Positions 1,631 through 52,629 of a stretch of 64,000 bases of DNA are shown piece after piece. The notes below the pieces were generated by a model. That model did not search any database and was not told the DNA's origin. It saw nothing but the letters and a program-made list of their open reading frames with translations. The stretch lies in NCBI GenBank assembly GCA_964016885.1, contig OZ024750.1, positions 36,828,001 through 36,892,000 of the forward strand. The letters are read 5' to 3'. Within the stretch, counting starts at the first letter, position 1; each line of letters opens with the position of its first letter. Position numbers and translations under genes: made by a program. Origin of the DNA: Eledone cirrhosa. Its lineage: Eukaryota.

Positions 1631-1853
1631 AGAAAAAGAGATGAAATCGAAAATGCAACGGGAGTCTTATTTTTTTTTTTTAAATATATATATTTATTTG
1701 GTTCCGCGAAACCGGTAAAGGAACCAAATAAATATATATATTTTTTTTTAAAAATAAGACTCCAGTTGCATTTTCGATTTCATCTCTTTTTCTTTATACT
1801 TTCACTCGTGTAGGACACCTCGGTTATTTTTCAATTTGTAAAAAAAACCTCAC

Positions 1854-1858
<5 letters not shown>
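1631..1858 (+). mobile_element. Penelope-like/HHR element fragment with inverted duplication (about 75-bp arms)
   Basis: 1631-1705 is a near-perfect inverted copy of 1720-1793; the spacer and start of the right arm read GAAA-CCGG-TA (3' half of a minimal HHR) followed by AATAAA; flanked by (TA)n/(GA)n and (TA)n. Confidence 0.65.
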
Positions 1859-1890
<32 letters not shown>

Positions 1891-2016
1891 TAACAGATTA
1901 AAGTTTAAGCAAAGAATCTTTGGATTATAGTCTTCACATTTATTATTATTACTATATATATATATATATATCGTCATCATCATCATCATCGTTTAACGTC
2001 TATCTTCCACACTAGC

Positions 2017-2474
2017 ATGAAATTTCGTTTCATTTTTTCCGTTTATCGTTTTCGGTGCACCCGGCCGATTAACCCACTCGATATGCAAATTAGGCTACTC
2101 AGCCGTTAATATGCATAAGGTAAGTATATACTTTTGGACGTTCAACTATCTGGCAGGAAGGTATACGTTGCTAATGATAGCTAACAAGCTTGAAAGTAGT
2201 ACAGCGTTCCTTTCTCAGTGTTGAACAAACGAGCAACAATGGTTGCTAGACACTACGGCTTAATACGGGATGTTTGTTTACAAACACACCGAGCATTATA
2301 ATAAATGTTCGGTGAATCCATATGTACATATATATATGTGTGCATGTATGTATATATATATACATACTACTGTACATCTGTATACATATATGTATGTACG
2401 TGTACATACTTATATTTAAGTAACAACCGTACTAAGAGTGGGAAATGAAATTTCGTTTCATTTTTTCCGTTTAT
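2017..2474 (+). mobile_element. Terminally redundant non-coding element (428-bp unit, 30-bp direct repeat) with HHR
   Basis: ATGAAATTTCGTTTCATTTTTTCCGTTTAT at 2017-2046 and 2445-2474; ends in (TA)n. Confidence 0.7.
2165..2207 (+). ncRNA. Type I hammerhead ribozyme, minimal, G5>A degenerate
   Basis: ACGTTG-CTAATGA-t-AGCT aaca AGCT-t-GAAA-gtag-TA-CAGCGT: stem I and stem II pair; core deviates at G5. Confidence 0.7.
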
Positions 2475-2571
2475 ATATATATATATAAATATAAATATAT
2501 ATATGCAAGCAGAGATAAGCAGACGTAAAATGATGATGATATATATATACATAATATTATATATATATATA

Positions 2572-3250
2572 ATAATTGGTGTGGGATGCTTAAAGAGTCT
2601 GTAAGTGGTATGCCGTTTGAGCACTTGATACTCTTACAGAGCAGAGTATAATATCACATAAGAAACGGAGAATCAGTGGTGCGACGAATAAGATTTATTA
2701 GACATATTACAATCGTTTCTCTGGCGACCAGCTCGAGGCACGATCGATGCAATGATCAAACCTGATGCTGAAATCGCAAGATTCTCAGATATGTCTCGAT
2801 TCTACAAAGCAGAGTTTGGAAACTTCCACCAGAAGCACTCAGAAAACGTATCTCAAACAAAAATTAACAAGTTAGTGAAAAATTAGTAATTAGAAAAATT
2901 CAGTCACCTATCGCTGTTCAATAGAATGGTAGTAATCGGCTCTAGTATCCATGTACCAGGGCGAGAAATAGTACAACGGTAACAATGGTAGTGCATAAAC
3001 CCGTTCCGGACATTAAATGCCAACCGGCCATTAGACAACGATATAGAGTTAGTGCGCTGGCTAGAGGCAGAATTCTAGATATTTTGACCAACCACTTGCG
3101 TAAACCAGTCAATTTCACAACTTGTAAGATTCAATAGGTGAGTGAAAGGGAACATTTATAACAGGTATTAGAGCATATATTAAAACAAAACAATAAGAAA
3201 TGTGAAAAATTGTTCAACTTACACCCATTGTTAATCTGCTAGTTGGGAGA
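2572..3250 (-). mobile_element. Non-coding HHR-bearing element (PLE/retrozyme-like)
   Basis: HHR on minus strand followed by AATAAA and ending in (TA)n; shares a ~125-bp module with 4134-4259. Confidence 0.6.
2700..2796 (-). ncRNA. Type I hammerhead ribozyme, long stem II, degenerate core
   Basis: Minus strand: AGACATAT-CTGAGAA-TCTTGCGA...TCGCCAGA-GAAA-C-gatt-G-TA-ATATGTCT; 8-bp stem I; one deviation from CUGANGA. Confidence 0.75.
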
Positions 3251-3456
3251 AAATAATTGTTTCTACTTTTGGCACAAGGCCAGTTCATTACTGGTACTTT
3301 ATTTTATCGACCCCGTAAGTTGACGGAACTAGTATAGTTATCACTGCTAGGACCGGTTGCATCTCAGTGTACTCAATAGGTAATGTTAAATAAACTCCCA
3401 GAGTATACACACAGTTATTTGCTTCAATACAACACACGTTAATTGGTACCTTCAAT

Positions 3457-3815
3457 GGAGGCACATGGCTTAGTGGTTAGAGCATTGGCCTTGCAATCGA
3501 AAGGTTATCAGTTCAATTCTCAGACCAGTGATGTGTTGTTTCCTTGAGCAAGACACTTTATTTCACATTGCTCCAGTTTACTCAGCTGTAGAAATGAGAT
3601 GATAGGGACCCCAGTCCCTATCATCTCATTTCTACAGCTGGGGTCCCTATCATTCCACTGCAAAGTGGTCGTGGAGGTACCACAGCAAAAAGCACCCAGC
3701 ACTCACTGTAAATGAGGTTTGTGTTAGGAAGGGCATCCAGCTGTAGAAATCAAGCCAAAATTAGTTCCCGTCCCACCCTTGCAAGCAGGGAAAAAGCGGA
3801 CGTAAAATGAAATGA
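3457..3815 (+). mobile_element. tRNA-derived SINE with RTE-type tail
   Basis: A box TGGCTTAGTGG, B-box-like GTTCAATTC, CCTTGAGCAAGACACT body, tail GGAAGGGCATCCAGCTGTAGAAA...GGACGTAAAATGA; near-identical copies at 18055, 24960 and 29665. Confidence 0.85.
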
Positions 3816-4259
3816 ATTATTCCTGTACTCGAGTTTCGGCCACTTAATGCAGCAATAGTGTGCCCAGCACCCACTCTCCACATATATTATGCAACAATGC
3901 ACAATCAGCACATGTGGCTTCATCAGAGGATTTCGCCTAATAAATAACCAATCGATCGACAGAATTCGATCCCAGTCCTTGTTGGCTATGACTGTATGTG
4001 ACGGCCAACACAGTAAAACGTTAGCAACTGGAATCTCTACACGTCATCACAATGCTGTCACCTGACTGGCTACCGATACAGAAATTTCTGTGATGGCAGG
4101 AAACAAAAACCAAATAGTTCCGCTCTTGCTATAAGCACTCAGCCAACGTATTTCAAACACAAATTAACAAGTTAGTGAAAAATTGGTTATTAGAAAAATT
4201 CAGTCTCCAATCGCTGTACAATTGAATGATAGCATTTGGCTCCAGTCTCCAAGTACCAG
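3816..4259 (-). mobile_element. Non-coding HHR-bearing element fragment
   Basis: Contains the HHR at 3821-3930; 4134-4259 is homologous to 2834-2959. Confidence 0.55.
3821..3930 (-). ncRNA. Type I hammerhead ribozyme, palindromic stem III
   Basis: Minus strand: TCCT-CTGATGA-a-GCCAC...GTGGC-c-GAAA-CTCGAG-TA-c-AGGA; perfect core, 1-nt register defect in stem I. Confidence 0.75.
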
Positions 4260-4693
4260 TAATGCACTTGGGCCAATTTAATCGACTTTCCCTCACCCAA
4301 AATTGTTGGCCTTGTGCCTAAATCAGAAACCAGTATTTACATTTTGAGAAATTAATACAAGTTCTATTGTTATATGCAGACACTAAATATTTTTTGAAAT
4401 TCTGTGTCATTCTAATGTTCTATATTCTAGAATAGATTTGAAAGTATTTGTTATATGAAAAAAAATATTGTTAGATATATTTATTAAAAAGTTAGGATTA
4501 TTATCAAAATTAAAATTTTGTTTATGGTTGATCAAATGAAATTTGAAGTTTTGATCATTAATTTGCAAGAAGGAAATCATTTTTAATTAATACCAACCAA
4601 TAATGTTTTCATTTTAGCTTATTCTTTGTTTTTATCAATAAGCTATTATTCAAAAATATGCCACTTAAATAAAAACAGCTGAGATATTGTAAA

Positions 4694-5405
4694 TAATTGT
4701 TTCTACTTTTGGCACAAGGCCAGCAATTATCTCAGTGTATTACTGGTACATTATTTTATCAACCCCGTAATAGCTGTCTCTACTATTGGCACAAGGCCAG
4801 CAATTATATCAGTGTATTACTGGTACATTATTTTATCAACCCCGTAATGGCTGTTTCTACTATTGGCACAAGGGCAGCAATTAAACCAGTGTATTACTGG
4901 TACTCAATTTTATCAACCCCGTAATAGCTGTTTCTACTATTGGCACAAGGCCAGCAATTATCTCAGTGTATTACTGGTACATTATTTTATCAACCCCGTA
5001 ATGGCTGTTTCTACTATTGGCACAAGGCCAGCAATTAAACCAGTGTATTACTGGTACTTTATTTTATCGACCCCATAATAGCTGTTTGTACTATTGGCAC
5101 AAGGCCAGCAATTATCCCAGTGTATTACTGGTACTTTATTTTATCGACCCCATAATAGCTGTTTCTACTATTGGCACAAGGCTAGCAATTATCCCAGTGT
5201 ATTACTGGTATTTTATTTTAATCGACCCCATAATAGCTATTTCTACTATTGGCACAAGGCCAGCAAGTACCCAGTACATTACTGGTACTTTATTTTATCG
5301 ACCCCATAAGGATGAAAGGCAAAGTTAACCTCGATGGGATTTGAACTAAGACCGTAAAGGGCCGCAACTCTGTGATTCAAAGCATGGCGTCCGACCCTCA
5401 ATGTT
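4694..5405 (-). repeat. SINE with its 3' part amplified as a 77-bp tandem array (about 8 copies)
   Basis: Repeated TTTCTACTATTGGCACAAGGCCAGCAATT...TACTGGTAC...ACCCC unit that continues into the SINE body at about 5310-5405. Confidence 0.9.
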
Positions 5406-5454
5406 TGGTACATTACTGCTATCACACATATCAACCACAAATCAAACACTAATA

Positions 5455-7030
5455 GACACATACATATACTCATACATAGCCACACACATAAAGAGACACA
5501 CATACACACACAGACTTACACACAGACTCACACATATAAACACACAGACACACGCACATATATAGACACCAACACATACACACACACACACACACACACA
5601 AACACATACATAGCCACCAACACATATACACACACACAGACGCACACATACATAGACACCAACACATACAAACACAGACACACATACATAGACACCAACA
5701 TACACACACACAGACACACACATACATAGACACCAACACATACACACAGACACACATACACACACATACACAGACACACATACATAAACCAACACATACA
5801 CACACACAGAGACACCAACACATATGCACACACACATAGACATACATAGACACCAACACATACACACACACACACACATACATAGACACCAACACATATG
5901 CACACACACATAGACATACATAGACAGCAACACACACACACACATACATAAACACCAACACATACACACATACAGACACACACATACATAGATACCAACA
6001 CATACACATACACACACACACACATACAGACACCAACATATACACACACACACATATACATAGACACCAACACATACACACACATGCATAGACACCAACA
6101 CATATACACATACGCACACACAGACACACACATACATAGACACCAACACATATGCACACAGACACACATATACATAGACACCAACACATACACACACAGA
6201 CACACACATACATAGACATCAACACATACACACACAGACACACACATACATAGACACCAACACATACACACACACACATACATAGACACCAACACATATA
6301 CACACACAGACACACACATACATAGACACCAACACATATGCACACACACACATACATAGACACCAACACATACACACCCACAGACACACACATACATAGA
6401 CACCAACACATATGCACACACACACATACATAGACACCAACATATACACACACACAGACGCACACATACATAGACACCAACACATATGCACACACACACA
6501 GACGCACACATACATAGACACCAACACATATGCACACACACACACATACAGACACCAACATATACACACACACAGACGCACACATACATAGACACCAACA
6601 GATATGCACACACAGACGCACACATACATAGACACTAACACATACACACACACAAACATACATAGACACCAACACATACACACACATATACATAGACACC
6701 AACATATACACACACACAGACACACACATACATAGACACCAACACATACACACACAGACGCACACATACATAGACACCAACACATACACACACATACACA
6801 CACATTCATAGACACTAACACATACGCACACACACATACATAGACACCAACACATACACACACATATACAAAGACACCAACATATACACACACACACACA
6901 CAGACACCAACACATACACACACAGACACACGCATACATAGACACCAACACATACACACACACACACATACGTAGACACTAACACATATACACACATATA
7001 CAGAGACACCAACATATACACACACACATA
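5455..7030. repeat. CA-rich compound minisatellite (CATAGACACCAACACATACACACA-like unit)
   Basis: Direct reading; explains the long Cys/Val ORFs. Confidence 0.95.
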
Positions 7031-7990
7031 AATGAGAATATATAAAGGATAGTTTTAAATGTAGAGAAGAACGAAGGAAATAATTATGGTTATCAGTGTA
7101 TCTGTCTCTCTATCTGTGTGTGTGTATGTGTATGTGTATGTGAGTGTGTGAATAGGTGTATGGGGATATATGTGTGTGTATGAGTATGTGTGTGTGCATG
7201 GGTGTATCATGTGTGCATGGATGTGTGTGTGTGCATGTGTGTGGTTTTTAGTACAGATGTCACTACTAGAATATAACTGAAGGCTAATTAATTTAATTAT
7301 TTCTACTTTTGGCACAAGGCCAGCAATAATCTCAGTGCATTACTGGTACTTTATTTTATCGACCCCGTAAGGATGAAAGGCAAAGTTAACCTCGACAGGA
7401 TTTGAACTCAGACCATAAAGGGCCGTAAGGCTAATTAATTTAATACATATGAAATGTGAAGTCATCTGACTTAGTAATTAGGATGATTGGTTAATGATTG
7501 GAAGGCTGTGAGTTCAATTCTTGGCAGTGTCTTGTTTTCCTGAGCAAGACACTTCACTTGAGCAAGCACTTCACTTCAGCAAGACATTTCACGTCACACC
7601 AGTCCACTCAAATGACAACATTGGATTGTATCTAATTCATAGTGGCCAGCCTATGTCACATATTGTGTTATTTTGAATTTTCCTGAGAACTGAGTTAACG
7701 TTATAAATATCTGTGGAATACTCAGCCACTTGCACATTAATTCCAGGAGTAGGATGTTTCATTGGTCAAACACATGGAAGAGTAGTTATAGTAACTAACA
7801 GAGTGCCAACAAACAGCACAAATTTCTCTCTTTAAACCATCCATTTAATTTTAATTTAAGAATTTATCAGGATGAAGTTTTCATAAGTAATGAACCCTTT
7901 TTAATTGATTTAGTGGGTGCCTCCCTTTAATCCTATTTGTGGTTTTAACCATCATTTTCCCCAAATAATATGAATGCTTCAAACGATAAT

Positions 7991-8176
7991 TGTTTCTACT
8001 TTAGGCACAAGGCCAGCAATTACCCAGTGCATTACTGGTACTTTATTTTATCGACCCCGTAAGGATGAAAGGCAAAGTCAACCTCGGCGGGATTTGAACT
8101 CAGATCGTAAAGGGACGTAACCATGCTGGAAAGCATGGCGTCCGACCCTCTACCGATACTGCCAATCCACCGCCCC
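7991..8176 (-). mobile_element. tRNA-derived SINE (Meta-domain-like) with 18-bp TSD
   Basis: GTTCAAATCC B box; central TTTGCCTTTCATCCTTACGGGGTCGATAAAA; TSD AATGCTTCAAACGATAAT at 7973-7990 and 8177-8194. Confidence 0.9.
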
Positions 8177-8194
8177 AATGCTTCAAACGATAAT

Positions 8195-11097
8195 GCACCC
8201 CTCTCCACTCTGTAAAGTGGTAGTGCTGCTGTCACAATAAAAGACACCCCCCTCCACTCTGTAAACTGGTAGTTCTGGTGTCACAATAAAAGACACCCCT
8301 CCACTCTATAAAGTGGTAGTGCTGCTGTCACAATAAAAGACACCCCCTCCACTCTGTAAAGTGGTAGTGCTGCTGTCACAATAAAAGACACCCCCTCCAC
8401 TCTGTAAAGTGGTAGTGCTGCTGTCACAATAAAAGACACCCCCTCCACTCTGTAAAGTGGTAGTGCTGCTGTCACAATAAAAGACACCCCCTCCACTCTG
8501 TAAAGGGGTAGTGCTGCTGTCACAATAAAAGACACCCCCTCCACTCTGTAAAGTGGTAGTGCTGCTGTCACAATAAAAGACACCCCCTCCACTCTGTAAA
8601 GTGGTAGTGCTGCTGTCACAATAAAAGACACCCCCTCCACTCTGTAAAGTGGTAGTGCTCCTGTCACAATAAAAGACACCCACTCCACTCTGTAAAGTGG
8701 TAGTGCTGCTGTCACAATAAAAGACACCCCCTCCACTCTGTAAAGTGGTAGTGCTCCTGTCACAATAAAAGACACCCACTCCACTCTGTAAAGTGGTAGT
8801 GCTGCTGTCACAATAAAAGACACCCCCCTCCACTCTGTAAAGTGGTAGTGCTGGTTTCACAATAAAAGACACCCCATGCACTCTGTAAAGTGGTAGTGCT
8901 GCTGTCAAAATAAAAGACACCCCCCTCCACTCTGTAAAGTGGTAGTGCTGCTGCAACAATAAAAGACACCCCCCCCCCTCCACTCTGTAAAGTTGTAGTC
9001 CTGGTGTCAATAAAAGACACTCCCCTCCACTCTGTAAAGTGGTAGTCCTGGTGTCACAATAAAAGACACGCCACTTCACTCTGTAAAGTGGTAGTCCTGG
9101 TATCACAATAAAAGACACCCCCTCCACTCTGTAAAGTGATAGTGCTGCTGTCACAATAAAAGACACCCCCTCCACTCTGTAAAGTGGTAGTGCTGCTGTC
9201 ACAATAAAAGACACCCCCTCCACTCTGTAAAGTGGTAGCGCTGCTGTCACAATAAAAGACACCCACTCCACTCTGTAAAGTGGTAGTGCTGCTGTCACAA
9301 TAAAAGACACCCCCTCCACTCTGTAAAGTGGTAGTGCTGCTGTCACAATAAAAGACACCCCCTCCACTCTGTAAAGTGGTAGTGCTGCTGTCACAATAAA
9401 AGACACCCCCCTCCACTCTGTAAAGTGGTAGTGCTGCTGTCACAATAAAAGACACCCCCCTCCACTCTGTAAAGTGGTAGTGCTGGTTTCACAATAAAAG
9501 ACACCCCCTCCACTCTGTAAAGTGGTAGTGCTGGTTTCACAATAAAAGACACACCCTCCACTCTGTAAAGTGGTAGTGCTGGTGTCACAATAAAAGACAC
9601 CCCCCTCCACTCTATAAAGTGGTAGTGCTGGTTTCACAATAAAAGACACCCCCCTCTACTCTGTAAAGTGGTAGTGCTGGTTTCACAATAAAAGACACGC
9701 CCCTCCACTCTGTAAAGTGGTAGTGCTGCTGTCACAATAAAAGACACCCCCCTCCACTCTGTAAAGTGGTAGTGCTGGTTTCACAATAAAAGACACCCCC
9801 CTCTACTCTGTAAAGTGGTAGTGCTGGTTTCACAATAAAAGACACGCCCCTCCACTCTGTAAAGTGGTAGTGCTGGTGTCACAATAAAAGACACCCCCCT
9901 CCACTCTGTAAAGTGGTAGTGCTGGTTTCACAATAAAAGACACGCCCCTCCACTCTGTAAGGTGGTAGTGCTGGTTTCACAATAAAAGACACGCCCCTCC
10001 ACTCTGTAAAGTGGTAGTGCTGGTTTCACAATAAAAGACACGCCCCTCCACTCTGTAAAGTGGTAGTGCTGGTGTCACAATAAAAGACACCCCCCTCCAC
10101 TCTGTAAAGTGGTAGTGCTGGTTTCACAATAAAAGACACCCCCCTCCACTCTGTAAAGTGGTAGTGCTGGTGTCACAATAAAAGACACCCCCTCCACTCT
10201 GTAAAGTGGTAGTGCTGGTTTCACAATAAAAGACACGCCCCTCCACTCTGTAAAGTGGTAGTGCTGGTGTCACAATAAAAGACACCCCCTCCACTCTGTA
10301 AAGTGGTAGTGCTGGTTTCACAATAAAAGACACGCCCCTCCACTCTGTAAAGTGGTAGTGCTGGTGTCACAATAAAAGACACCCCCTCCACTCTGTAAAG
10401 TGGTAGTGCTGGTTTCACAATAAAAGACACCCCCTCCACTCTGTAAAGTGGTAGTGCTGGTTTCACAATAAAAGACACGCCCCTCCACTCTGTAAAGTGG
10501 TAGTGCTGGTTTCACAATAAAAGACACCCCCCTCCACTCTGTAAAGTGGTAGTGCTGGTTTCACAATAAAAGACACCCCCCTCCACTCTGTAAAGTGGTA
10601 GTGCTGGTTTCACAATAAAAGACACCCCCCTCCACTCTGTAAAGTGGTAGTGCTGGTGTCACAATAAAAGACACCCCCTCCACTCTGTAAAGTGGTAGTG
10701 CTGGTGTCACAATAAAAGACACCCCCTCCACTCTGTAAAGTGGTAGTGCTGGTTTCACAATAAAAGACACCCCCCTCCACTCTGTAAAGTGGTAGTGCTG
10801 GTGTCACAATAAAAGACACCCCCTCCACTCTGTAAAGTGGTAGTGCTGGTTTCACAATAAAAGACACCCCCCTCCACTCTGTAAAGTGGTAGTGCTGGTG
10901 TCACAATAAAAGACACCCCCTCCACTCTGTAAAGTGGTAGTGCTGGTTTCACAATAAAAGACACCCCCCTCCACTCTGTAAAGTGGTAGTGCTGGTTTCA
11001 CAATAAAAGACACCCCCCTCCACTCTGTAAAGTGGTAGTGCTGGTGTCACAATAAAAGACACCCCCCTCCACTCTGTAAAGTGGTAGTGCTGGTGTC
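8195..11097. repeat. 48/49-bp minisatellite (about 60 copies) derived from SINE/RTE-tail internal unit
   Basis: Unit GACACCCCCTCCACTCTGTAAAGTGGTAGTGCTGCTGTCACAATAAAA; followed by degenerate SINE tail (TTGGCATTAGGAAGGGC). Confidence 0.95.
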
Positions 11098-11517
11098 TCA
11101 AAACACTTTGTAATGTGATTGGCATTAGGAAGGGCCATAGAAACCAAACCAAAAATGCAACATATGAGCTTATTGTGGTCATCTGACCTGTCTAGTCTCA
11201 GAACAGGATAACCGATCCAATCCATGTCAGCATTCTAACTGGACATAGCATAGGGGTGATGATGATGATGATGATGATGATGATTATTGTGGTGGTAGTG
11301 ATGATGATGATTATGGTGATGATGATGATGGTTTTGTTGAGGGTGATGATGATGATGATGGGGAGGGTGATGATGATGATGATACTTATACATATATTCT
11401 CAGATATGTACCCACACACATATATATATATATTCATATATACAAATATACATATATATGCACATATACAGATATATATATATATATGCACATATACATA
11501 TATATGCATATATATTA

Positions 11518-12924
11518 ATCGACCAGGTCATGAAGGTCACGGAAAAAGTAATAGCGCAACTAATCAGAGAGAGAATTGACCTAGATGAAATGCAGTTCGG
11601 GTTTGTGTCAGGCAAAAGTACCACAGACGCTCTTTTCATAGTACGACAACTACAGGAGAAGTACCTAGCTAAAGGTAAACCCCTCTACTTAGCTTTTGTC
11701 GACTTGGAGAAAGCCTTCGACAGAGTCCCCCGCTCCATTATCTGGTGGGCTCTTAGAAAACTAGGCGTTGACGAATGGCTTGTGAGGGCTATACAAGCCA
11801 TGTATAAAGAAACAGTCAGCAAGGTTAGAATTAACAACGAATATAGTGAAGAGTTTAGCGTAAAAGTTGGCGTCCATCAGGGCTCTGTTCTCAGTCCACT
11901 ACTATTTATTATTGCCCTTCAGGCTATAACAGAGGAGTTCAAGACAGGCTGCCCATGGGAACTCCTATACGCAGACGACCTGACACTCATAGCGGAATCA
12001 ATGGCCGAGCTAGAGAAGAAATTCCAAACATGGAAGCACGGCCTAGAGTCAAAAGGACTTAAAATTAACCTGGCTAAGACCAAAGTACTAGTTTGTAGGA
12101 AAGAAAACAAGGCGGCGGTCCCTTCTGGGAAATGGTCGTGCTCGGTGTGTAGGAAAGGCGTAGGTAGAAACTCCATTTTATGTCCTAAATGCAAAGTATG
12201 GGTGCATAAAAGATGTAGTGGGATCACAGGTAAGCTAACTAAGAACATAGATTTTACATGTGGCCGGTGCTCTGGTGCAATAAGTAGCAGCAAGTGCCCA
12301 CAAACTACTAGCTCTTTCAATTGCGCAGAGGGTTCTATAGAAATAGTGGACAGCTTCCGTTACCTGGGCGATAAAATCAGCAGTGGGGGAGGGTGCTCTG
12401 AAAGTACTGTAGCTAGAGTCAGAACTGGTTGGAAAAAGTTCAGAGAGCTTATACCACTATTAGCTGCTAAAGGGTTCTCACTAAAAATGAAAGGCAGGTT
12501 GTACGATGCCTGCATACGAACAGCAATGCTGCATGGCAGTGAGACCTGGGCATTGTGTGCAGAGGATATACGCAGACTAGAGAGAAACGAAGCTTGCATG
12601 CTCCGCTGGATGTGTAACAGTAATATACGTGAACGGCAAAGCATAAACGAACTAAGGAAAAAATTAGAGATAAGAGGGATCAGATGTTGTTTACTCGAGA
12701 GAAGGCTACGTTGGTATGGACACGTGATGCGCATGAAAGTCGATAGCTGTATAACAAAGTGCAGGGCAATAAAGATAGACGGTAGCCACGGAATAGGCAG
12801 ACCTAGAAAAACCTGGGACGAGCTGATAAACTCCGACATCACACACTTACACCTCTCCAAGACAATGTCACTGGACCGAGACCTTTGGCGGTACTCAGTA
12901 ACAGAGAAGACCCGCCTTACCTAA
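11518..12924 (+). CDS. RTE reverse transcriptase C-terminal half (5'-truncated) with PHD-like finger
   Basis: QFGF, AFVDLEKAFDRV, GVHQGSVLSPLLF, LLYADD, FRYLG, RLRWYGHV, GRPRKTW; the N-terminal residues of the track ORF are microsatellite. Confidence 0.9.
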   Translation: MDQVMKVTEKVIAQLIRERIDLDEMQFGFVSGKSTTDALFIVRQLQEKYLAKGKPLYLAFVDLEKAFDRVPRSIIWWALRKLGVDEWLVRAIQAMYKETVSKVRINNEYSEEFSVKVGVHQGSVLSPLLFIIALQAITEEFKTGCPWELLYADDLTLIAESMAELEKKFQTWKHGLESKGLKINLAKTKVLVCRKENKAAVPSGKWSCSVCRKGVGRNSILCPKCKVWVHKRCSGITGKLTKNIDFTCGRCSGAISSSKCPQTTSSFNCAEGSIEIVDSFRYLGDKISSGGGCSESTVARVRTGWKKFRELIPLLAAKGFSLKMKGRLYDACIRTAMLHGSETWALCAEDIRRLERNEACMLRWMCNSNIRERQSINELRKKLEIRGIRCCLLERRLRWYGHVMRMKVDSCITKCRAIKIDGSHGIGRPRKTWDELINSDITHLHLSKTMSLDRDLWRYSVTEKTRLT

Positions 12925-13324: not shown

Positions 13325-15046
13325 ATATATATACATATATATGCACATATACAAATATACATATATATGCACATATACAGATTTATGCATGCAAATACAT
13401 ATTCATTGAGAACCATACATGTCCACGTATCCATATGTACATATACTTATACATATGATGAAAACAACTCTTTGAAAATTATTTTGCTATCTAAGATTCA
13501 GTTGTTGATTAAAAACATAACTGTATCCACTCTCCTGTGTTTGTAATTTAACTATTTCTAACAGTAAGTGTCAAACCCATTATCCTAAAACGTAAATAAA
13601 AACAACGAATGAATGGACTTATGTAAGTATTAATCATCATTATCATTCGTCGACTACTGTCGAGATGATGGATCTCACTCTCATGCCCCAGAATTCCCTG
13701 TCCCCCATCGCTGCCCCCAGGTCCTGTCTACTGATTCCCCGTATCCCTAGAGATAACGTCAGGGAATGACAGCTTCCTACTCCTAGTCATTACTTAAGTA
13801 TTACTTAATTCCACTCTATGACTTTTCCATGTAAATTCTTTGCTATTGTGACGTCAGAAAAACAAGAGAGTGTCAAGCTTTGCTCCCTTCCGAAATCTCT
13901 TTGGGGTCTTGAGATACACAACCTTTGTGTGTCTAACGCAGGCCCATCACCAGTTTTTTTACTGTATGAAATGGAGACTGAAATGTATTTTTATAACAGG
14001 CTTCTCTACCTAAAACATGAACATGTCCTTTATTAACCCGTGTGAAGGATGATGTGGTATTGTTCTTTTACTTACCTCTCACCATATTGCCGTTTTGCTG
14101 GTCTTATTCATGCCGTTCACCAATTTGGTACTTTCTGTGGATCTACAAATTTAAATATAAACTAAATAATAACTTTTACCCATTTGGTTCACTATTAAAA
14201 GACTCTGAATTTAAAGCTTTCAGTTGACATGTCATTACTCTAAGAGTAATAATGCCCAAAAAGAAATTTAAAAACTATTACAAAACAATCAAAGAAACAA
14301 AGAAAAACATGTATATAAATACATATAAAGATATAGTCAAACGACAACAACTATATTATCAAACTTGAGAAATTTTAATTCAGATGCAAATGGCATTGAT
14401 GTATCAAAGAAAGAATTATTTTTTATGTATGAAAAGATGAGGGAAATGTACTTAATAGAAGACAATAAACGAGAAATATATAGAAACAGAATTGTTAAAC
14501 AGACAATAGTATCTAGCAACAGTAAATTAAAATATTCACATTAACGCTTCTTTTTTTCTGTTGGTTAATTTTATTGTGTTGTTTTTGGTGTCCTATTTCG
14601 TCTTATCTGAAACTTTCAGAAAGGATTATGCACTGAACTTACTATCACTATTTAGACTTAAGAAATAGAAATGTTTTATTTATTAGCGTCCATTAGTCTT
14701 TATTATGTTGCATTCAATGGACTCAAAGAAGATTCTTTTCATTTTCAATTATGGAAATTTATTGACTCAAAATTTTATCAATACATATAGATCAATAGAC
14801 ATGTACATGGATGTGTAGTCAGGGAGGTTGTTTGGAAACCATGGGTTTCTGAGTTCAGTTACACTGTCACTCTTTAGGTTAGTATCTTCTACTATCACTT
14901 TGGGTTGACCAATGTCTTGTGAGCAAAATTTAGTAGATAGTAACTGAAAATCTGGCATGTATATATATATATGCCAGATTATGGTATATATATATATATG
15001 TAATTCGTTTTTCAATTTGTTTTGCAAGATTTCTTATCTGAAAATG

Positions 15047-15091
15047 TGTCACTGAGGAGGTCACAGAATGTGTGACGAAAGAGTTTTGACA
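15047..15091 (+). ncRNA. Type I hammerhead ribozyme, minimal, degenerate cleavage site
   Basis: TGTCA-CTGAGGA-g-GTCACA gaatg TGTGAC-GAAA-gagt-TT-TGACA, within a ~210-bp insert between (TA)n tracts. Confidence 0.7.
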
Positions 15092-16719
15092 ATATATAGA
15101 CAACCTTCCAGTTATCGAACCAACCAACCAATCGGAAATTTATAATAAATTGAAGTAAAAACCAACAGGTGCATGTGTTTTTATTGGTAACATGACCCTC
15201 CCAAAGTATAACAATATATATATTTATTTATATATACCTGATTTTCACACATTTACTGTCTATAAAGCCAATGAAATAAAATATACTATAAACCATGGAA
15301 GGCAAAGTTATCTTTGGCAGAATTTGAAATCAGAAAGTAAAAAGCTAGAAATATACACTGCAATGTCATTCTCTCTATCAATTTCTTTATATTTGTGGCT
15401 GATATTGCAAACAAATTATATCGTTCGTGTGAAGGCTTAGTGGTTAGAGTGGTGGGTTTACAATCATATGATTGTAAGTTAGGTTCCCAGACCACAAACA
15501 ACCTTGCCTGGACTTGTGCCTCAGAAAAGGAACATTCTAGGTGCAAATCCCATTGTCATTTGTGACCAAAGGGGGTTTCCACCTTCACACAAATATAGTT
15601 CATAAACATGCTATAAAAACTACTTCCATTAGCCATTACGTCAGATATTTTAAATGATGTTCCAGGTCAGTAAATTTAGCCTTATTACCTTGGAGAATTA
15701 AAGCTTGCTGATGCCATTTTCGAGGTGATTTCTTCATTATAATGCATGCAGCTTTCCAATTAATAGCAATTACATTTTATAGATTTCCTGGTTGTAGTTG
15801 TCTTTTGAAATGAGATCTTGTGAGAATTGTGACTATTATATTCATGTGAGCAGAAATATCTATGACAATAATATTGAGATTTATAATTAAATATTTCTTC
15901 TTATATTAAACAATATAGATTAATAATACATAGATTTAAACAAAAAGAAAGAAAATATGATTTTGAAAATGTGAATTTCTAAGATTTCTATGGGATCTTT
16001 AGATCAAATTTAAACAGGCTTCAATAAATAGCTTTTCACAGACATGAATGAGAAACAAAACTGAAATTTGTGTTTGACCCAATTTCATTCCTATTGTTAT
16101 TATCCAACTTAGAAAATAAAACAAAAGTGGCAATTATTTAAAGAAATGTAGTTTTATCATTTCTTTTGAATAAGAAATTGAAATTTTGTGTTAACATAAA
16201 AATCTCTACAAAGAAAAAAAAATGAAAAAATATACTCAAAAGATGATGCCTAAAGCTGTCTATCAAAAAAAATATTTGAAAAAAATGCTAATTCTTTTTC
16301 TATCTAATTTTTTCCCATATATTTTATTATTTACCAGAAATACATTGTTAAAATACATTTTATTTATTGGATCTATTGATAAAAGTTTAAATTACAGACA
16401 TTCAAATTTATCATTAGTTAAACATTATAAAATGCACTAATCTGTAGTAAAATTGATAAACTTTTTGTTGAATAATTACATTCTACCAGAACTGGCTGCA
16501 ATTTCCACATTCTAAACAGAACAAATAGTAGTAAAATTATTATTGGCTCTATAATTTAATTGCTATATCATATCAATAGTATTTGATTTTACATTAGGAA
16601 TTTGATTGACTATTTTTAGAACATTGCTTCCTGACTAAAACTAACAAAAACCAACAATGACTACAAAACAAAGCAAAAGATTAAGTAGAACATTTAATAT
16701 TGAGACCCCAGGTGTAATA

Positions 16720-18388: not shown

Positions 18389-18748
18389 GATATGTCAAAT
18401 AAAATTGTAATTGACAATATGGACAGAAATTGAATAGAGACTGTGTTACACTCTCTTCTGTAATCAGTAAAGTAATCCATGATACATTTAAAAAAGATGA
18501 TATTATATATAAACTGCATTACCGTGGAATGTTATGAAACTTTATATAACGATGCAAATATATGGATGTTTATATAAGCGATGTAATAAGTGTTGTGATA
18601 TAACGGACGCTAACCGGAAGTGTAGATATTTGAAAATTTGAAAAGAAGTGAATCTTAAAATAAGCAATACTTTATATATAAGAATATTTATGTTTAATCA
18701 ACAGCTACGAAATTTAGTAGATAAATTATGTAATATTCATTCATTATT

Positions 18749-25359: not shown

Positions 25360-25941
25360 ACATCATCATCATCATCATCATCGTTTAACGTCCATGTTCC
25401 ACGCTTGCATGGGTTTGGACGGGAGTTTTCCCACTTGAGGTAAGAGTGGTTGTCTTGCTTGCATAGGACTGTCTGGCGGGTTTTCTACAGTTGGATGCCC
25501 TTCCTAACACCAACAACATTTACAGTGTGGGGCTGGGAGGTTTTTACCGTGTTGCCTACACGGCCACATTACAGCGTGGACTGTCTGGCGGGATTTCTAC
25601 AGCTGGATGCTCTTCCTAACACCAACCACATTTACAGTGTGGGACTGGGAGGTTTTTACCGTGTTACCTACACGGCCACATTACAGCGTGGACTCTGTGT
25701 TTTTTTTGTCATGACACCTACACGATCTCATATGTTTCGACCTGGATGTTGTGGCACCAACATAACTTTACATTGAAAGGGGCGGTGTGGATGGGGGGGG
25801 GTATTTTGTTAGAGATGCCTGTCGACTGTAGTAGGTTTTACTTTGTATTTAGGTAAGGCGGGTCTTCTCTATTACTGAGTACCGCCAAAGGTCTTGGTCC
25901 AGTGACATTGTCTTGGAGAGGTGTAAGTGTGTGAGGTCGGA
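25360..25941 (-). mobile_element. RTE 3' end/3' UTR with internal duplication
   Basis: Homologous to 12833-13324. Confidence 0.85.
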
Positions 25942-33855: not shown

Positions 33856-33924
<69 letters not shown>

Positions 33925-34289
33925 GATATATTAACAAATGGAAACTATATTTATAAAACCATATTTATTTCATTATACATATTTCAAGGACACCAAGTCA
34001 AATTATGGTGCGCTTTCATCAGATAAAATATAATATAGATCAGTTTTATAAATAAATATTGACATACCCTTAAAGAATGTGACCATTTCTGTTGCTTTAT
34101 ATCAGTTATAAAAATATTTGCTTGTTGTATCCCAACAAATTAAATATAACTTCTACATATATATATATATATATATACACACTTTTATACACACACTTAT
34201 ATATATATATATACACACACACATGTATATATATACATACACACTTCATTTCTACAGCTGAGTAAACTGGAGCAATGTGAAATAAATTA

Positions 34290-34716
34290 CCCACACCGCC
34301 CCTTTCAATGTAAAGTTATGTTGGTCCCACAACATCCAGGCCGAAACAAATGAGATCGTGTAGGTGTCACGACAAAAAACACACAGTCCACGCTGTAAAT
34401 GTGGCCGTGTAGGCAACACGGTAAAAACCTCCCAGCCCCACACTGTAAATGTGGTTGGTGTTAGGAAGGGCATCCAGCTGTAGAAAACCCGCCAGACCGT
34501 CCACGCTGTAATGTGGCCGTGTAGGCAACACGGTAAAAACCTCCCAGCCCCACACTGTAAATGTGGTTGGTGTTAGGAAGGGCATCCAACTGTAGAAAAC
34601 CCGCCAGACAGTCCTATGCGAGCAAGACAACCACTCTTGCCTCAAGTGGGAAAACCCCCGTCCAAACCCATGCAAGCGTGGAACACGGACGCTAAACCTG
34701 ATGATGATGATGATGA

Positions 34717-35494: not shown

Positions 35495-35893
35495 TACTAT
35501 ACTATATATTTTCAACAGTAATACAGTACTATATATTTTCAACAGTAATACTGTACTATATATTTTCACCAGTAATACTATACCATCTATTTTCAACAGT
35601 AATACTATACTATATGTTTTCAACAGTAATATTATACTATATATTTTCAACAGTAATACTGTACTGTACTATACATTTTCAACAGTAATACTATACTATA
35701 CTATATATTTTCAACTGTAATACTATACTATATGTTTTCAACAGTAATATTATACTATATATTTTCAACTGTAATACTATACTATAGGTTTTCAACAGTC
35801 ATACTATACTATATATTTTCAACAGTAATACTGTACTATATATTTTGAACAGTAATACTATACTATATATTTTCAACAGTAATACTATACTAC
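35495..35893. repeat. About 27-bp minisatellite (ATATTTTCAACAGTAATACTATACTAT)
   Basis: Direct reading. Confidence 0.9.
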
Positions 35894-38620: not shown

Positions 38621-38621
<1 letters not shown>

Positions 38622-39097
38622 GGGTAACAAATAATAGTTATATGCAGTCCACCTGACCTACATTGTTTATAAACACTGGCTTATCTTTACGCTTGATATA
38701 ATACACCCTACGACACTCTTTACATGTCAATTTTATACATCTGCTTCATGTCAGCTAGTTTTACACGCTAAAATCTTAGATATACTATACCCCCCACCTA
38801 TGATGTTGTGATCATCTCAAATAATTTATTGCTAGCATTGTTGATACTGTTGTTATTGTTCTAACTGAATGCCATTACTATATCATATAGTAGCCTGTAT
38901 ATTCCTTTCATGCCTGTCTATTCTCTTCATTCTCATAAGCTCCGAAGAACTGACTGGTTATAATTTTGTATTGGCGATCGAGTAACGTGAAAACAAGCGG
39001 ATAGCGATCTCTAGACCTACCAGTTCAGAGAAACAATTGTCAGCAGTGAGATTAAAAACCTTTTTTGTATAGCAAACCGTGTCAATCTTCTTTCCTG

Positions 39098-39100
<3 letters not shown>
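38621..39100 (+). mobile_element. (TA)n-flanked non-coding HHR element
   Basis: 480 bp of unique sequence between two long pure (TA)n tracts; HHR followed by ATTAAA. Confidence 0.7.
38931..39051 (+). ncRNA. Type I hammerhead ribozyme, long stem II, GUC site
   Basis: TCTCAT-aa-GCT-CCGAAGA-a-CTGACTGGT...ACCAGTTCAG-a-GAAA-CAATTG-TC-AGC-a-GTGAGA; U4>C; palindromic stem III ACAATTGT. Confidence 0.8.
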
Positions 39101-39183
<83 letters not shown>

Positions 39184-41570: not shown

Positions 41571-41685
41571 CTGTAGGAGCCAATGGGTTTAGGAAATGCT
41601 GGGGCACTGATATTGCAAAAAGAAATGTCAATTTTGTAGTCAGTCATTAATATTTTGATGAATGTTGTGTTACAAACATCATTTC
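41571..41685 (-). CDS. Candidate host-gene exon, product uncertain
   Basis: Donor CAG|GTAAGC at 41571; acceptors TTAG| (41685) or TCTTTTTCAG| (41697); open frame NDVCNTTFIKILMTDYKIDISFCNISAPAFPKPIGSY; non-repetitive. Confidence 0.4.
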
Positions 41686-41717
41686 CTAATTATATAACTG
41701 AAAAGATGACAAATTGT

Positions 41718-43420: not shown

Positions 43421-43756
43421 TCTAACATGTTAGGTTCTAAGTTCAAATCCTGCCAAGAGTGTATTTTTACCTTCATCTTTCTGAAGCTTGATGAAATAAA
43501 GTTCCAGTCCAAGACATTGAATTAGTGGAATTATCAGAGAACTGGACAATTCTTTTTGTGCTACGTACCCATCTTACTGGTGTAGTAAACTTATTTGTAC
43601 CTAAGCAACAAGATGGTGCCTTGTATAAAGTACCCAATCAAAGAAAATGAGAAACAAGCATTGTATCTGTGTTCTCCTACAAAGATTCCATGCCAAACAT
43701 CATCATTACCATTTTACGTCCATTTTTCCATGCTAGCATGGGTTAGACTATAGGAA

Positions 43757-43876
43757 ATGCTTACAGCATCTAGGTTTCCCAAGCGGTCACCCATCTAAGT
43801 ACCAACTAGGCTCGATGTTGCTTAACTTCAGTGTTTGGAAGAGCACGGGTGTTTTCAGCATGATATGGCTGTAAAC
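43757..43876 (-). rRNA. 5S rRNA copy (diverged, probably retroposed or a SINE head)
   Basis: Minus: GTTTACAGCCATATCATGCTGAAAACACC...GAAGTTAAGCAACATCGAGCC...GTACTTAGATGGGTGACCGCTTGGGAAACCTAGATGCTGTAAGC; about 120 nt with A/C boxes; only TTT after it. Confidence 0.9.
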
Positions 43877-43931
43877 TACTAGCGACTTTTCATGGATGTC
43901 CATAGAGTCATTTCTGAACATAATCAGGATG

Positions 43932-44395
43932 TAACAGAATTGAGGGTTATTTATACATCATCTGTAACCTTAGCTATCCATGTTATCGTGTTTAGTTCAT
44001 TATATTAGGAGCATGCAATAGAATTGGGGGTTGTTACACATCATATGTAACCCTAGCTATCCATGTTATCGTGTTTAGTTCATTATATTAGGAGCATGCA
44101 ATAGAATTGGGGGTTGTTACACATCATATGTAACCCTAGCTATCCATGTTATCGTGTTTAGTTCATTATATTAGGAGCATGCAATAGAATTGAGGGTTGT
44201 TACACATCATCTGTAACCCTAGCTATCCATGTTATCGTGTTTAGTTCATTATATTAGGAGCATGCAACAGAATTGGGGGTTGTTACACATCATCTGTAAC
44301 CCTAGCTATCCATGTTATCGTGTTTAGTTCATTATATTAGGAGCATGTAACAGAATTGAGGGTTGTTACACATCATATGTAACCCTAGCTGTCCA
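43932..44395. repeat. 83-bp tandem repeat (about 5.5 copies)
   Basis: TGTTATCGTG recurs at 43981, 44064, 44147...; degenerate extra copy at about 44690-44820. Confidence 0.9.
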
Positions 44396-46349: not shown

Positions 46350-46815
46350 TAGGTTTCCCAGAGTTGCAATACGGGGAAATGTGGTCTAGAGTGGGTTTGC
46401 TAGTGTTGCAATACTGGGTTGCAATAATGGGTTTGCCAGAGCTGCAATACTGGGGGAATGTTGCCCAGAGTGGGTTTGCCAGAGTTGCAATAATGGGGAA
46501 ATGTTTCCCAGGATGGGTTTGCCAGAGCTGCAATGCTGGGGAAATGTGGTCTAGATTGGGTTTGCCACAGCTGCAATAATGGGGAAATGTTTCCCAGGAT
46601 GGGTTTGCCAGAGCTGCAATGCTGGGGAAATGTTGTCTAGATTGGGTTTGCCACAGCTGCAATAATGGGGAAATGTTTCCCAGGATGGGTTTGCCAGAGC
46701 TGCAATGCTGGGGAAATGTTGTCTAGATTGGGTTTGCCAGAGCTGCAATACTGGGGGAGTGTTGTCCAGAGTGGGTTTTGCTAGAGTTGCAATGCTGGGT
46801 TAATGCTATCCAGAG
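46350..46815. repeat. About 43-bp G-rich minisatellite
   Basis: GGGTTTGCCAGAGCTGCAAT..GGGGAAATGTT unit. Confidence 0.9.
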
Positions 46816-49800: not shown

Positions 49801-50617
49801 TTGCCATTATAAAGCTGATTTTTATGATGAAAACTTCAAAAAAGGTTTTTATATAAAATGATGATAGAAGTCTTTAATTTAAATATAAACACTTTGAAAT
49901 GAGAGATTTTGGATTATAGAACAAAGTATAGAACAGGTTAGTGTCAAAATAACGTTAGAACTGTCAATATTGTGAATAGATTACTTATATGCCCTAATCA
50001 CCTGCACTAGCTGGAATTAAAATGAAAACCTTTTGATGAATACTGCTTGGAGATTCTTGATCTAAGAGGAAATTAGTATTTGTGGAGTGAAGATTTATTT
50101 TATGTAATGTATAAAAGGTTATAAAAGACCATTTAGCTATAAAATCCCTATACATTTTATATCATTTTGTTCATTAAAAGCAATATAAAGTTTACAAAAT
50201 ATATGGCAGTTGTGATGCAGCGAGCTAAATTTGTTTTTAAAAAAGTCTAAATTCTTTTTATTATAATGTAAATTTTAAAATCATCCGAGTTCTATAGTTT
50301 AGGCAAACCTGAAAATGACATTCTCCTGGTTGTTTACCAATTTATTTATATACATTGCTGGAGAAATAAACAGAAAGTTATACACAAACTCCTATTCTGG
50401 GAACCAACTTATGGGTGCTGCAATAGATGAAAACCTGCTTCAACAATCATCCATCAATTCTCAGATGATTCAAATCTCAATAGGGAGCAATTACCAGGAG
50501 CAATGGAAAATTAAGACCTTGTCAGGAATGTTTGACTGTGGTTACAATGATGATGGTCTCTCTATTTATCTATCTATATACATATGTATACATACATACA
50601 AACATACATACATATAT

Positions 50618-51292
50618 CATCATCATCATCATCATCAACGTTTAACGTCCGTGTTCCACGCTTGCATGGGTTTGGACGGGGGTAGTCCCACTTGAGGCAA
50701 GAGTGATTGTCTTGCTCGCATAGGACTGTCTGGCAGGTTTTCTACAGTTGGATGCCCTTCCTAACACCAACCACATTTACAGTGTGGGTCTGGGAGGTTT
50801 TTACCGTGTTGCCTACACGGCCACATTACAGCGTGGACTGTGTGTTTTTTTGTCGTGACACCTACACGATCTCATTTGTTTCGGCCTATGGCGCGGCACC
50901 AACATAACTTTACATAGAACGGGGTGGTGTGGATGGGGTGGGGGTGGTGGTGGTGGGACGGGGTGTATTTTGTTAGAGATGCCTACTGGTTGGAGTAGGT
51001 TTTACTATATATTTAGGTAAGGCGGGTCTTCTCTGTTACTGAGTACCGCCAAAGGTCTCGGTCCAGTGACATTGTCTTGGAGAGGTGTAAGTGTGTGATG
51101 TCGGAGTTTATCAGCTCGTCCCAGGTTTTTCTAGGTCTGCCTATTCCGTGACTACCGTCTATCTTTATTGCCCTGCACTTTGTTATACAGCTATCGACTT
51201 TCATGCGCATCACGTGTCCATACCAACGTAGCCTTCTCTCGAGTAAACAACATCTGATCCCTCTTATCTCTAATTTTTTCCTTAGTTCGTTT
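50618..51292 (-). mobile_element. 5'-truncated RTE copy, nearly identical to 12644-13324
   Basis: Same C-terminal peptide INELRKK...TEKTRLT and 3' UTR. Confidence 0.95.
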
Positions 51293-51340
<48 letters not shown>

Positions 51341-51375
51341 GTATGTATACATATGCATATAGATAGATAGAGAGA

Positions 51376-51777
51376 TGACCCCTTAGCCTTTGTCAAGGCA
51401 GAATTCTAGGAGAAGGAAAACTCTGATATAACACCTGCAACCCTGATGGTATCCAATGATGTTAACTTGTTCTTCTTTTTGGTAAATATCATCTTGGTTA
51501 AGAGAGTGGGACTGGCTTTGTGCAGTGCCTTTGCTCACTATAAAAGCTTCACGGCACAGGCATTGCTTTATATCGGGAGATCTCTCTGCACTTGTCATCA
51601 CATGGTACCATGGGCCCAGCACTATGTGTCAATAATTGTCACAAGTGTAGTGTTTGTACCAGAGTTTTCAAGTCGCTGGCTGGACTAAAAAGTCACACTC
51701 GTTCAGCCCATCGGTAGGGGTTCTCCTACATGGATATAAAGTAGTGGCCGTACTCGGAAACGAGTTGGCAGCCACCA
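51376..51777 (+). mobile_element. Short internally deleted RTE derivative (5' UTR joined to 3' end)
   Basis: CTAGGAGAAGGAAAACTCTGA RTE 5' UTR motif, then HKCSVCTRVFKSLAGLKSHTRSAHR* C2H2 finger typical of some RTE C-termini. Confidence 0.7.
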
Positions 51778-51798
51778 TATATATATATATATATATAT

Positions 51799-52629
51799 AG
51801 TTAAAGGTCTATAGATTTTCCCTGGATTTTACTAAATTCTGTGGATGAATTTATATCCTGATTCTCTTTTGAGATGAGTTTGAGTTATTTTTCCTAAATC
51901 TTTCGTTAACTACTTTTCCCATCTTGACGTTATAGTCGCATATATGTTATAGAATGCCGTTAGCTTCTTGCTAAAACAATCTCTATACCTCTCATTTATA
52001 TTTATACTCGGATTCTTTTCCTAGAGTGCTTAAACTATCTGTGACTAATCCCGGTTTTTTTCATAAAAACTGTGATAATATTGCTATTTTGCTGAACTCC
52101 TTTGTAGAGTTTTTTTCAGAATGTATTTGACTGCTATTTCTTGTAAATAAACATTCACTTCCATCCTGACGTCACTAGCCCCGTTTTTTCCTCATGTGCT
52201 TTTTCATAAATACACATGAAGGCGAACTAGCCAGTTTTAGAATTCCCTTTTTCGGATTATATTACTGTGAGAGCCCTGGTTTTCTGTTGAGCTCTGCTGA
52301 TGATTGAAATTCCAACCGTGACCATCTCCACTGAAAGTTTTCATGAAATAGTCTTTTAAGACTATACAGAGCATTTGATGTTATTCCAAATTGAAGGATA
52401 AGTGTTTCAAACTTTATTTTATCATGAGTTAAAGGTCTATAGATTTTCCCTGGATTTTACTAAATTCTGTGGATGAATTTATATCCTGATTCTCTTTTGA
52501 GATGAGTTTGAGTTATTTTTCCTAAATCTTTCGTTAACTACTTTTCCCATCTTGACGTTATAGTCGCATATATGTTATAGAATGCCGTTAGCTTCTTGCT
52601 AAAACAATCTCTATACCTCTCATTTATAT
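51799..52629 (+). mobile_element. Terminally redundant HHR element (628-bp unit + 203-bp repeat) in (TA)n
   Basis: 51799-52001 appears identical to 52427-52629; (TA)n on both sides; no ORF of 60 aa or more. Confidence 0.85.
52291..52372 (+). ncRNA. Type I hammerhead ribozyme, intact core
   Basis: GCTCTG-CTGATGA-t-TGAAA...TTTCA-t-GAAA-TAGTCT ttta AGACTA-TA-CAGAGC; all three stems pair; predicted cleavage after A52366 (AUA). Confidence 0.9.

Follow-up and report, generated by a model that had tools for sequence, protein, structure and literature searches.

Type I hammerhead motifs mark probable Penelope-like element ends and candidate retrozymes in the genome of Eledone cirrhosa

Hammerhead motifs are already known from the Penelope-like elements (PLEs), including those of octopus: Hydra-1_Obim of Octopus bimaculoides is listed with both a hammerhead and a preference for (TA)n (Craig et al., 2021, PMC8557442, cited, like the other publications here, from its accessible parts). 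Also known are a covariant U3-A8 core pair, reported for Schistosoma PLEs (PMC4209133), the PLE tail, which in vitro is the stretch between two internal start sites of reverse transcription, both target strands being nicked and extended (PMC11167929), and the retrozymes, together with the idea that a PLE acts as their helper (PMC7229834; PMC7761336; Li, Clavereau and Pollet, 2026 preprint). Published type I motif counts reach 126,247 in axolotl, more than 6000 in Acropora and about 5000 in Mytilus (PMC7229834), and minimal motifs number 4,000-9,000 in coelacanth and Xenopus (PMC4209133). For giant squid, 235 Rfam hammerhead hits are reported (PMC6962438), and the accessible text of a 2026 repeat annotation of Octopus vulgaris makes no mention of ribozymes (PMC13282606); within the accessible texts, a full-text literature search returned no octopus retrozymes and no genome-wide cephalopod hammerhead count beyond that of giant squid, and a term search of a 2026 ribozyme preprint found neither. 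The present analysis concerns 64,000 nt of contig OZ024750.1 of Eledone cirrhosa (assembly size 3.0 Gb), hereafter the window, in which hammerhead motifs recur. They very probably represent eight repeat families lying in (TA)n, each with a type I hammerhead at its 3′ end; five of these families would be truncated ends of PLEs and three retrozymes that are likely copied in trans by the reverse transcriptase (RT) and endonuclease of a PLE.

Motifs were located with a type I hammerhead scanner that admits at most one core change and a stem II of up to 110 nt, and local dinucleotide shuffles served as controls (30 for the window). At the main threshold, a score of at least 24, the window contains five motifs, as against a shuffle mean of 0.07 and a maximum of 1; a stricter version of the scanner found only three, and the relaxed version with its shuffles was used instead. 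The original prediction for this DNA, made from the sequence alone, had listed six complete motifs and one half motif, all of which are real: the outer stem I ends of the former lie at 2165(+), 2700(-), 3822(-), 15047(+), 38931/38939(+) and 52291(+), and the half motif near 1708(+) starts at 1706. Four of the six pass the threshold, and the other two, with cores at 2171 and 38942, rest on their families. Overlooked in that list were a full motif at 34022(-) and the remnant of a ninth family, J (Table 1). A scan of the window with Rfam gave 85 matches at E ≤ 1, none of them a hammerhead, and Rfam models thus miss forms with a long stem II and a short stem III. Weak scanner matches at 35599-35744, within a 27-nt tandem repeat, and at 18638, 26080 and 41655, which correspond to no family copy, were set aside as chance.

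Each motif has its own repeat family, and the families are designated A to H (Table 1). The surroundings had been described as mostly unrelated, which is true at this level; the flanks of the 2788 and 3926 motifs, however, match over 127 nt at 87%, since the 2788 element adjoins the second unit of the 3926 tandem array. Stem II measures 14-82 nt, close to the predicted range of about 14 to about 80 nt, and the stem III palindromes CCGG, CTCGAG and CAATTG are present as described. When the 40 best genomic copies of each family were scored and 20-30 loci fetched, the hammerhead core proved to be kept in the majority of every family. These majorities are canonical (CUGANGA...GAAA...UH) in A, B, C, D and G, as are 17 of the 19 matched copies of E from 20 loci, and the defects of two window copies are nearly private: G8A at 2788, where 19 of 20 family copies have G, and G5A at 2171, where 18 of 20 do. 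All 19 copies of family H have U3 and A8, the covariant pair, and a second U3-A8 family, independent of H, was observed at L107 and related loci (6 of 7 clustered copies). Family F departs from the canonical core by U4C in 20 of 20 copies, a change that lowers hammerhead activity in vitro and is tolerated in a viroid (PMC3088659). Family J, which has a long imperfect stem III, carries U4A in 32 of its 44 copies from the fetched loci and is a second fixed position-4 variant beside F.

Stem III forms a self-duplex of -2.2 to -10.7 kcal/mol, with no hairpin of its own, in families B, C, D, F, G and H; the self-duplex of E is weak (-3.3 kcal/mol), and stem III of A folds alone as a 7-bp hairpin, unlike the minimal, dimeric type. 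Family A also permits a comparison with a sister subfamily, represented by the majority of 14 full units. None of 36 core, stem I and stem III sites differs between the two, as against 94 of 628 sites overall (P about 0.002), N7 varies freely, and stem II contains one compensatory pair (a double change in 1 of 19 pairs). This contrast is the best evidence here that selection may have acted on the ribozyme.

Longer copies of five families run into PLE coding sequence, which was searched for with PLE peptides from the fetched loci as seeds. In family E, a GIY-YIG endonuclease lies on the same strand 200-254 nt upstream of the hammerhead in 3 of 20 loci, and a 73% identical relative (L174) also has an RT upstream. 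In family F, the endonuclease lies about 570-590 nt upstream of the match, on the same strand, in 7 of 20 loci, and three extended loci are colinear over 2.8-3.1 kb that include the RT. Family B has the endonuclease 1.6 kb upstream in four of five extended loci and the RT in two of them. For family C, the endonuclease was found 1.8 kb upstream in 10 of 20 loci retrieved with its upstream stretch, along with the pseudo-long terminal repeat (pLTR) of C in 7 of the 20, and RT-thumb fragments accompany it; this coding sequence was found from L181, and a Hydra-type endonuclease that precedes C by 1.9 kb in L179 was rejected as belonging to a different family with its own hammerhead. In family H, two of five extended loci contain the endonuclease 1.4 kb upstream, colinear over 1.9 kb at 92%; it has a CCHH pattern, after which come a stop and 1.4 kb of non-coding DNA. 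The window copies of B, C, E, F and H are therefore probably 5′-truncated ends of autonomous PLEs. The most complete relative belongs to a sister subfamily of B, in which six of eight copies picked for long frames have 708-781 open codons; one of them (L332) is a complete unit, an inverted pLTR followed by pLTR-ORF-pLTR, with an open reading frame (ORF) of 742 aa and hammerheads 4297 nt apart. A protein search with the family B RT gave 113,210 first-look candidates genome-wide, and the named relatives of a PLE protein from this genome are Argonauta proteins at only 36-41% identity.

By their motifs, families B, C and F appear to be Hydra-type PLEs, and E and H Neptune/Nematis-type PLEs. The family B protein contains RWR (one change from RWK), DKT and a CxCX5C linker and is without CCHH; C and F share the CxCX5C linker and have one Cys in the GIY-YIG core, and no N-terminal motifs were seen in these two. 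The endonuclease of C matches Pfam GIY-YIG at E=0.004, weaker than the curated cut-off. A hammerhead in the pLTR and a (TA)n target, both traits of the Hydra clade, are present in all three, and the Hydra placement draws on these motifs and on a by-eye match to the published description of Hydra-1_Obim. Family E combines a CX4CxxC linker with the CCHH endonuclease pattern. Membership of E and H in Naiad, whose endonuclease is N-terminal to the RT and which has no canonical hammerhead, was rejected: in these families nothing else is encoded between the endonuclease and the pLTR, and a hammerhead is present. A further Hydra-type family was observed at L285-L298, with a hammerhead whose stem II is 50-60 nt, about 900-1000 nt past the endonuclease, and a short tandem repeat in its 3′ region.

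Families A, G and D are organized differently, as head-to-tail units of 628, 429 and 884 nt, respectively, with one type I hammerhead each, and by this organization they are putative non-LTR retrozymes. Their units are without a coding match (best tblastn with PLE seeds, E 0.28), and no colinear ORF was found in 30 A, 25 sister-A, 20 G and 20 D loci. Copies of A are 98-100% identical, all lie in (TA)n, and end at one identical base in 30 of 30 loci, 258 nt past the predicted cleavage site. The A arrays comprise up to 12 full units and read through as many as 12 predicted cleavage sites. In six of nine arrays a private substitution is present in every unit, with mean differences of 2.3 within and 5.0 between arrays, which is what repeated copying of a single, perhaps circular, monomer would leave, as would local expansion or a homogenized multimeric transcript. 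The sister subfamily of A, 81-83% identical, is likewise tandem and without ORFs in 25 loci. Assembled contigs from four of six listed runs yielded only divergent subfamilies. Circular folds of the A, G and D units are more stable than those of shuffles (z -4.2, -8.6 and -2.0).

In all families the 3′ end is fixed within (TA)n and the 5′ ends are variable, and B, C, E, F and H have two fixed ends about 65-165 nt apart. An inverted piece stands at the 5′ junction in four window copies, those of B, E, F and H (for B and G, counts of such pieces are too high, owing to TA runs and internal palindromes, and were not used), and the junctions show 3-5 nt of TA-like microhomology. That most motifs end in (TA)n, as predicted, is borne out for the families; the 3926 window copy, broken up by SINE (short interspersed element) insertions and by the 2788 element, is an exception within a family that does end so. 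A single TA run can hold PLE ends of several families (L010, L084, L174, L177, L186 and L221), which makes for nested clusters and a clumped distribution. A short palindromic element is also frequently inserted directly at the TA runs of these families (L006, L035, L050, L132 and L146), in three copies of which the scanner sees a hammerhead-like U3-A8 motif.

This anatomy is consistent with a cycle in which tandem copies would be transcribed and the hammerhead would cut the RNA to unit length, acting as a dimer if its stem III is just a palindrome and as a monomer in family A, after which the unit-length RNA might be circularized. The GIY-YIG domain of a PLE would nick the (TA)n target, and reverse transcription would start at a fixed internal site of the RNA, about 50-260 nt past the cleavage site. 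Its random stopping could yield short pLTR stubs, copies of more than unit length and arrays, and the inverted “tail” at the 5′ junction could arise when the other nicked strand is extended, starting at a second fixed site. Since the hammerhead adjoins the start site, nearly every truncated insertion would keep it, which would produce the high motif density. Most dispersed copies were likely inactive from the moment of insertion. Throughout this cycle, self-cleavage, RNA circles and the helper itself are putative.

Abundance was gauged from forty 10-kb stretches at preset round coordinates, 400 kb in all, or 0.013% of the genome. This sample contains 48 motifs of score at least 24 (shuffle mean 1.1, maximum 4 in 10 shuffles), which collapse to about 40 insertions, and 36 of score at least 28, as against none in each of 10 shuffles; thus shuffled DNA falls far below the real density both here and in the window, and the predicted spacing of about one motif per 9 kb holds in both. 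The window is typical of the genome and no hotspot. Motifs are absent from 19 of the 40 stretches, and seven contain 3-5. Within 200 nt, (TA)4 lies downstream of 43 of 46 testable motifs and upstream of 17 of 47, with 25.6% expected at random positions, in agreement with the suggested (TA)n preference. Two more features noted earlier recur in the sample: AATAAA or ATTAAA follows within 30 nt in 17 of 48 motifs (4.4% expected), and 34 of the 48 have the self-complementary stem III of PLE-type hammerheads, suited to dimer folding. The length-weighted genome estimate is 355,000 motifs (bootstrap 205,000-519,000) at the threshold of 24, and a stricter estimate is 259,000 (bootstrap 150,000-387,000); decayed copies and family F are missed by the scanner, so that these figures err low. 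PLE coding sequence makes up 12,095 of the 400,000 sampled bases, and clustering of all motifs in fetched loci gave more than 50 groups.

Several observations weigh against the proposal that the families are PLE ends and PLE-copied retrozymes with working hammerheads. Within families, the core is hardly better conserved than the flanks and less so in A and C, as is expected from neutral decay of copies after insertion, and the selection signal is confined to the subfamilies of A, where covariation amounts to one pair. Three of nine A arrays are without a substitution common to all units, and in the longest the units alternate, which points to duplication at a later stage. Among PLEs, the extended loci of H yielded an endonuclease fragment only, without reaching an RT, and long ORFs were seen only in the sister subfamily of B, 84-88% identical to the window copy. 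No PLE end resembling the A, G or D units was found among the fetched loci, about 40 best copies per search having been scored; the suggested search for PLE RT and GIY-YIG sequences sharing these termini reached endonuclease or RT sequence in the other five families and found none for these three, and trans-mobilization by a PLE is drawn from the shared target, the fixed 3′ end and 5′ truncation. Finally, in the one PLE studied in vitro, hammerhead cleavage is protein-assisted, hammerhead mutants insert normally, and RNA with an end at the site of cleavage was not seen (PMC11167929); this makes the cleavage step of the proposed cycle less secure, in that cleavage may not be needed.

The original prediction had taken all of the motifs to mark non-autonomous ribozyme retroelements, a view that now appears very unlikely. 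The window copies are indeed short and non-coding, the autonomous partner that had been reported missing is absent from the window (no PLE coding sequence was found across the 64 kb), and A, G and D, as ORF-less tandems, are non-autonomous as claimed; moreover, the first searches turned up copies of B, C, E and H that for the most part have no ORF within 1.5 kb, and short units derived from pLTRs might also spread independently. The other five of the eight families, however, are colinear with endonuclease or RT in longer copies, and their 5′ ends vary as truncation predicts, so that the view is refuted as a statement about all eight.

It could also be that A, G and D are satellite DNA spread by unequal crossing-over or DNA circles, their hammerhead being a relic inherited from an ancestral PLE pLTR. 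Such an origin would suit the arrays, which reach 12 full units and in one case show the alternating variants typical of DNA-level duplication, and the array-wide private substitutions suit local expansion as well as they do rolling-circle copying. Yet the copies are scattered over many contigs with a single 3′ end in (TA)n and random 5′ ends, no hammerhead site changed as the unit diverged by 15%, and the circular folds exceed shuffles in stability in all three families, which together make a satellite origin very unlikely. That the motifs are chance folds of AT-rich, repeat-rich DNA is scarcely credible: two window copies do score inside the shuffled range and Rfam gives no match, but the excess over shuffles in the 400-kb sample, and the retention of the core and three stems by eight unrelated families, argue strongly otherwise. 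PLE ends and PLE-copied retrozymes thus remain the preferred reading of the window.

Table 1. Hammerhead-bearing elements of the window, with core positions and scanner scores. Candidates are first-look totals in the genome of E. cirrhosa and are lower bounds, not copy numbers.
Family	Element	Positions	Strand	Core (score)	Details	Candidates
H	Probable 3′ end of Neptune/Nematis-type PLE	1631-1862	+	1708	Ends in (TA)n; 5′-truncated through hammerhead, from 1706 only GAAA, palindromic stem III and 3′ stem I arm; preceded by inverted copy at 1631-1705	416
J	Remnant, 3′ arm of ninth hammerhead family	1869-1918	-		TA run common to J and H	
G	Candidate retrozyme, 1.07 units of 429-nt ORF-less tandem	2017-2474	+	2171 (16)	Hammerhead 2165-2207, stem II 14 nt; G5A and altered stem III	3999
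C	Probable 3′ pLTR of Hydra-type PLE	2572-2828	-	2788 (36)	Ends in (TA)n; hammerhead 2700-2796, stem II 62 nt; G8A	3315
D	Candidate retrozyme, 1.15 units of old 884-nt ORF-less tandem, 83-88% identity	2829-4258	-	3926 (28)	Hammerhead 3822-3930, stem II 82 nt; split by SINE pieces at about 3258-3315 and 3457-3814	2875
E	Probable 3′ pLTR of Neptune/Nematis-type PLE	14987-15215	+	15052 (26)	Hammerhead 15047-15091; inverted tail 14987-15049	4035
B	Probable 3′ pLTR of Hydra-clade PLE	33921-34156	-	34022 (39)	Intact hammerhead 33966-34030; inverted tail 34093-34156	722
F	Probable 3′ end of Hydra-type PLE	38622-39102	+	38942 (17)	Hammerhead 38939-39044, extended stem I from 38931, stem II 81 nt; inverted tail 38622-38651	2776
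A	Candidate retrozyme, 1.3 units of very young 628-nt ORF-less tandem in (TA)n	51800-52624	+	52297 (41)	Intact hammerhead 52291-52372, full 7-bp stem III; predicted cleavage after 52366	2324

The window as a whole is AT-rich and packed with microsatellites, SINEs and fragments of RTE-type long interspersed elements (LINEs), the names SINE and RTE being our presumptive assignments. RT-encoding LINE fragments, which we take to be of RTE type, lie at 11383-12924, 52976-53533 and 53971-54745, the longest open stretch being 513 codons. Minisatellites with 47-112-nt units that resemble local SINE pieces occupy 4698-5309, 8196-11101, 55651-56992, 25466-25694 and 34383-34614. Between two tandem arrays, at 43758-43876 (-), is a 5S rRNA-like copy (87 bits), which may be a gene, a pseudogene or a 5S-derived SINE.

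A broader and more tentative reading, to which we give slightly less than an even chance, is that this genome is the richest hammerhead repository described, with 260,000-350,000 motifs (one per 9-12 kb) in dozens of TA-targeting PLE and retrozyme families, fixed U3-A8, U4C and U4A variants and stem II inserts of up to about 100 nt that Rfam misses, and that family A is a still-spreading 628-nt circular retrozyme, rolling-circle copied from a fixed internal start by a PLE enzyme. If so, it would be the first matched genomic system for testing the mobilization of animal retrozymes: the young retrozyme A, Hydra PLEs with long ORFs and fixed core variants coexist here, so that the mobilizer of the retrozyme and the need for the hammerhead become directly testable. 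If the estimate holds, read-through transcripts and introns would often contain a potentially self-cleaving motif.

Families B, C and F resemble the described Hydra-clade PLEs, which have a single ORF with RW[R/K], DKT and CxCX5C, a C-terminal GIY-YIG without CCHH but with CxxC and CxH around E/N residues, a pLTR hammerhead and a (TA)n target (PMC8557442). The family B unit, at about 4.3 kb, exceeds the “generally <3 kb” given there, a general size rather than a strict criterion, because of the long 3′ non-coding regions (1.0-1.8 kb in F, B and C). Unlike the Hydra-clade PLEs in the accessible description are a stem II of 30-81 nt, the family-wide U4C of F and the very high copy number. E and H instead have the CCHH-type C-terminal endonuclease of the Neptune and Nematis PLEs with minimal hammerheads (Cervera and de la Pena, 2014, PMC4209133), either clade being possible for both. 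As in those elements, family E has the CX4CxxC linker and an extra base at the 5′ end of stem II, stem III is short and palindromic, truncated copies leave single motifs, inverted pairs occur, and the U3-A8 core of H matches that of Schistosoma Cercyon; 2,000-9,000 motifs per genome are published for them, as against the 10^5 estimated here with a different descriptor.

The metazoan non-LTR retrozymes (Cervera and de la Pena, 2020, PMC7229834; Li, Clavereau and Pollet, 2026 preprint) are, like A, G and D, ORF-less and head-to-tail with one type I hammerhead per unit, low in GC, dispersed as monomers to multimers and accompanied by PLEs. A (628 nt) and D (884 nt) exceed the 150-450 nt of the former description and fall inside the 51-972 nt range of the preprint. 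A strict (TA)n target combined with a single fixed 3′ end at an internal site, a trait of A, G and D, is not met in the accessible text of either description, the full 7-bp stem III sets A apart from the retrozymes described there, and A, G and D have no detected sequence link to a pLTR, as against a link in 24 of 57 Xenopus families (2026 preprint). The Poseidon PLE of Anolis (Frangieh et al., 2024, PMC11167929) shares with the present families two fixed 3′ ends per family, with a tail between them downstream of the hammerhead, and an AT-rich target; tails are about 65-165 nt here and 30-40 nt in Anolis, and the TA-like junction microhomology of 3-5 nt differs from the Poseidon start site, reported as non-homologous to the target. 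The estimated total of about 260,000-350,000 motifs exceeds the published counts compared, and the scale seems new, in a comparison that is not like for like, because the descriptor used here allows a long stem II. Set against what was already known, then, the families themselves are new, and unusual among their features are the abundance, the long stem II inserts, the fixed core variants and one very young candidate retrozyme.

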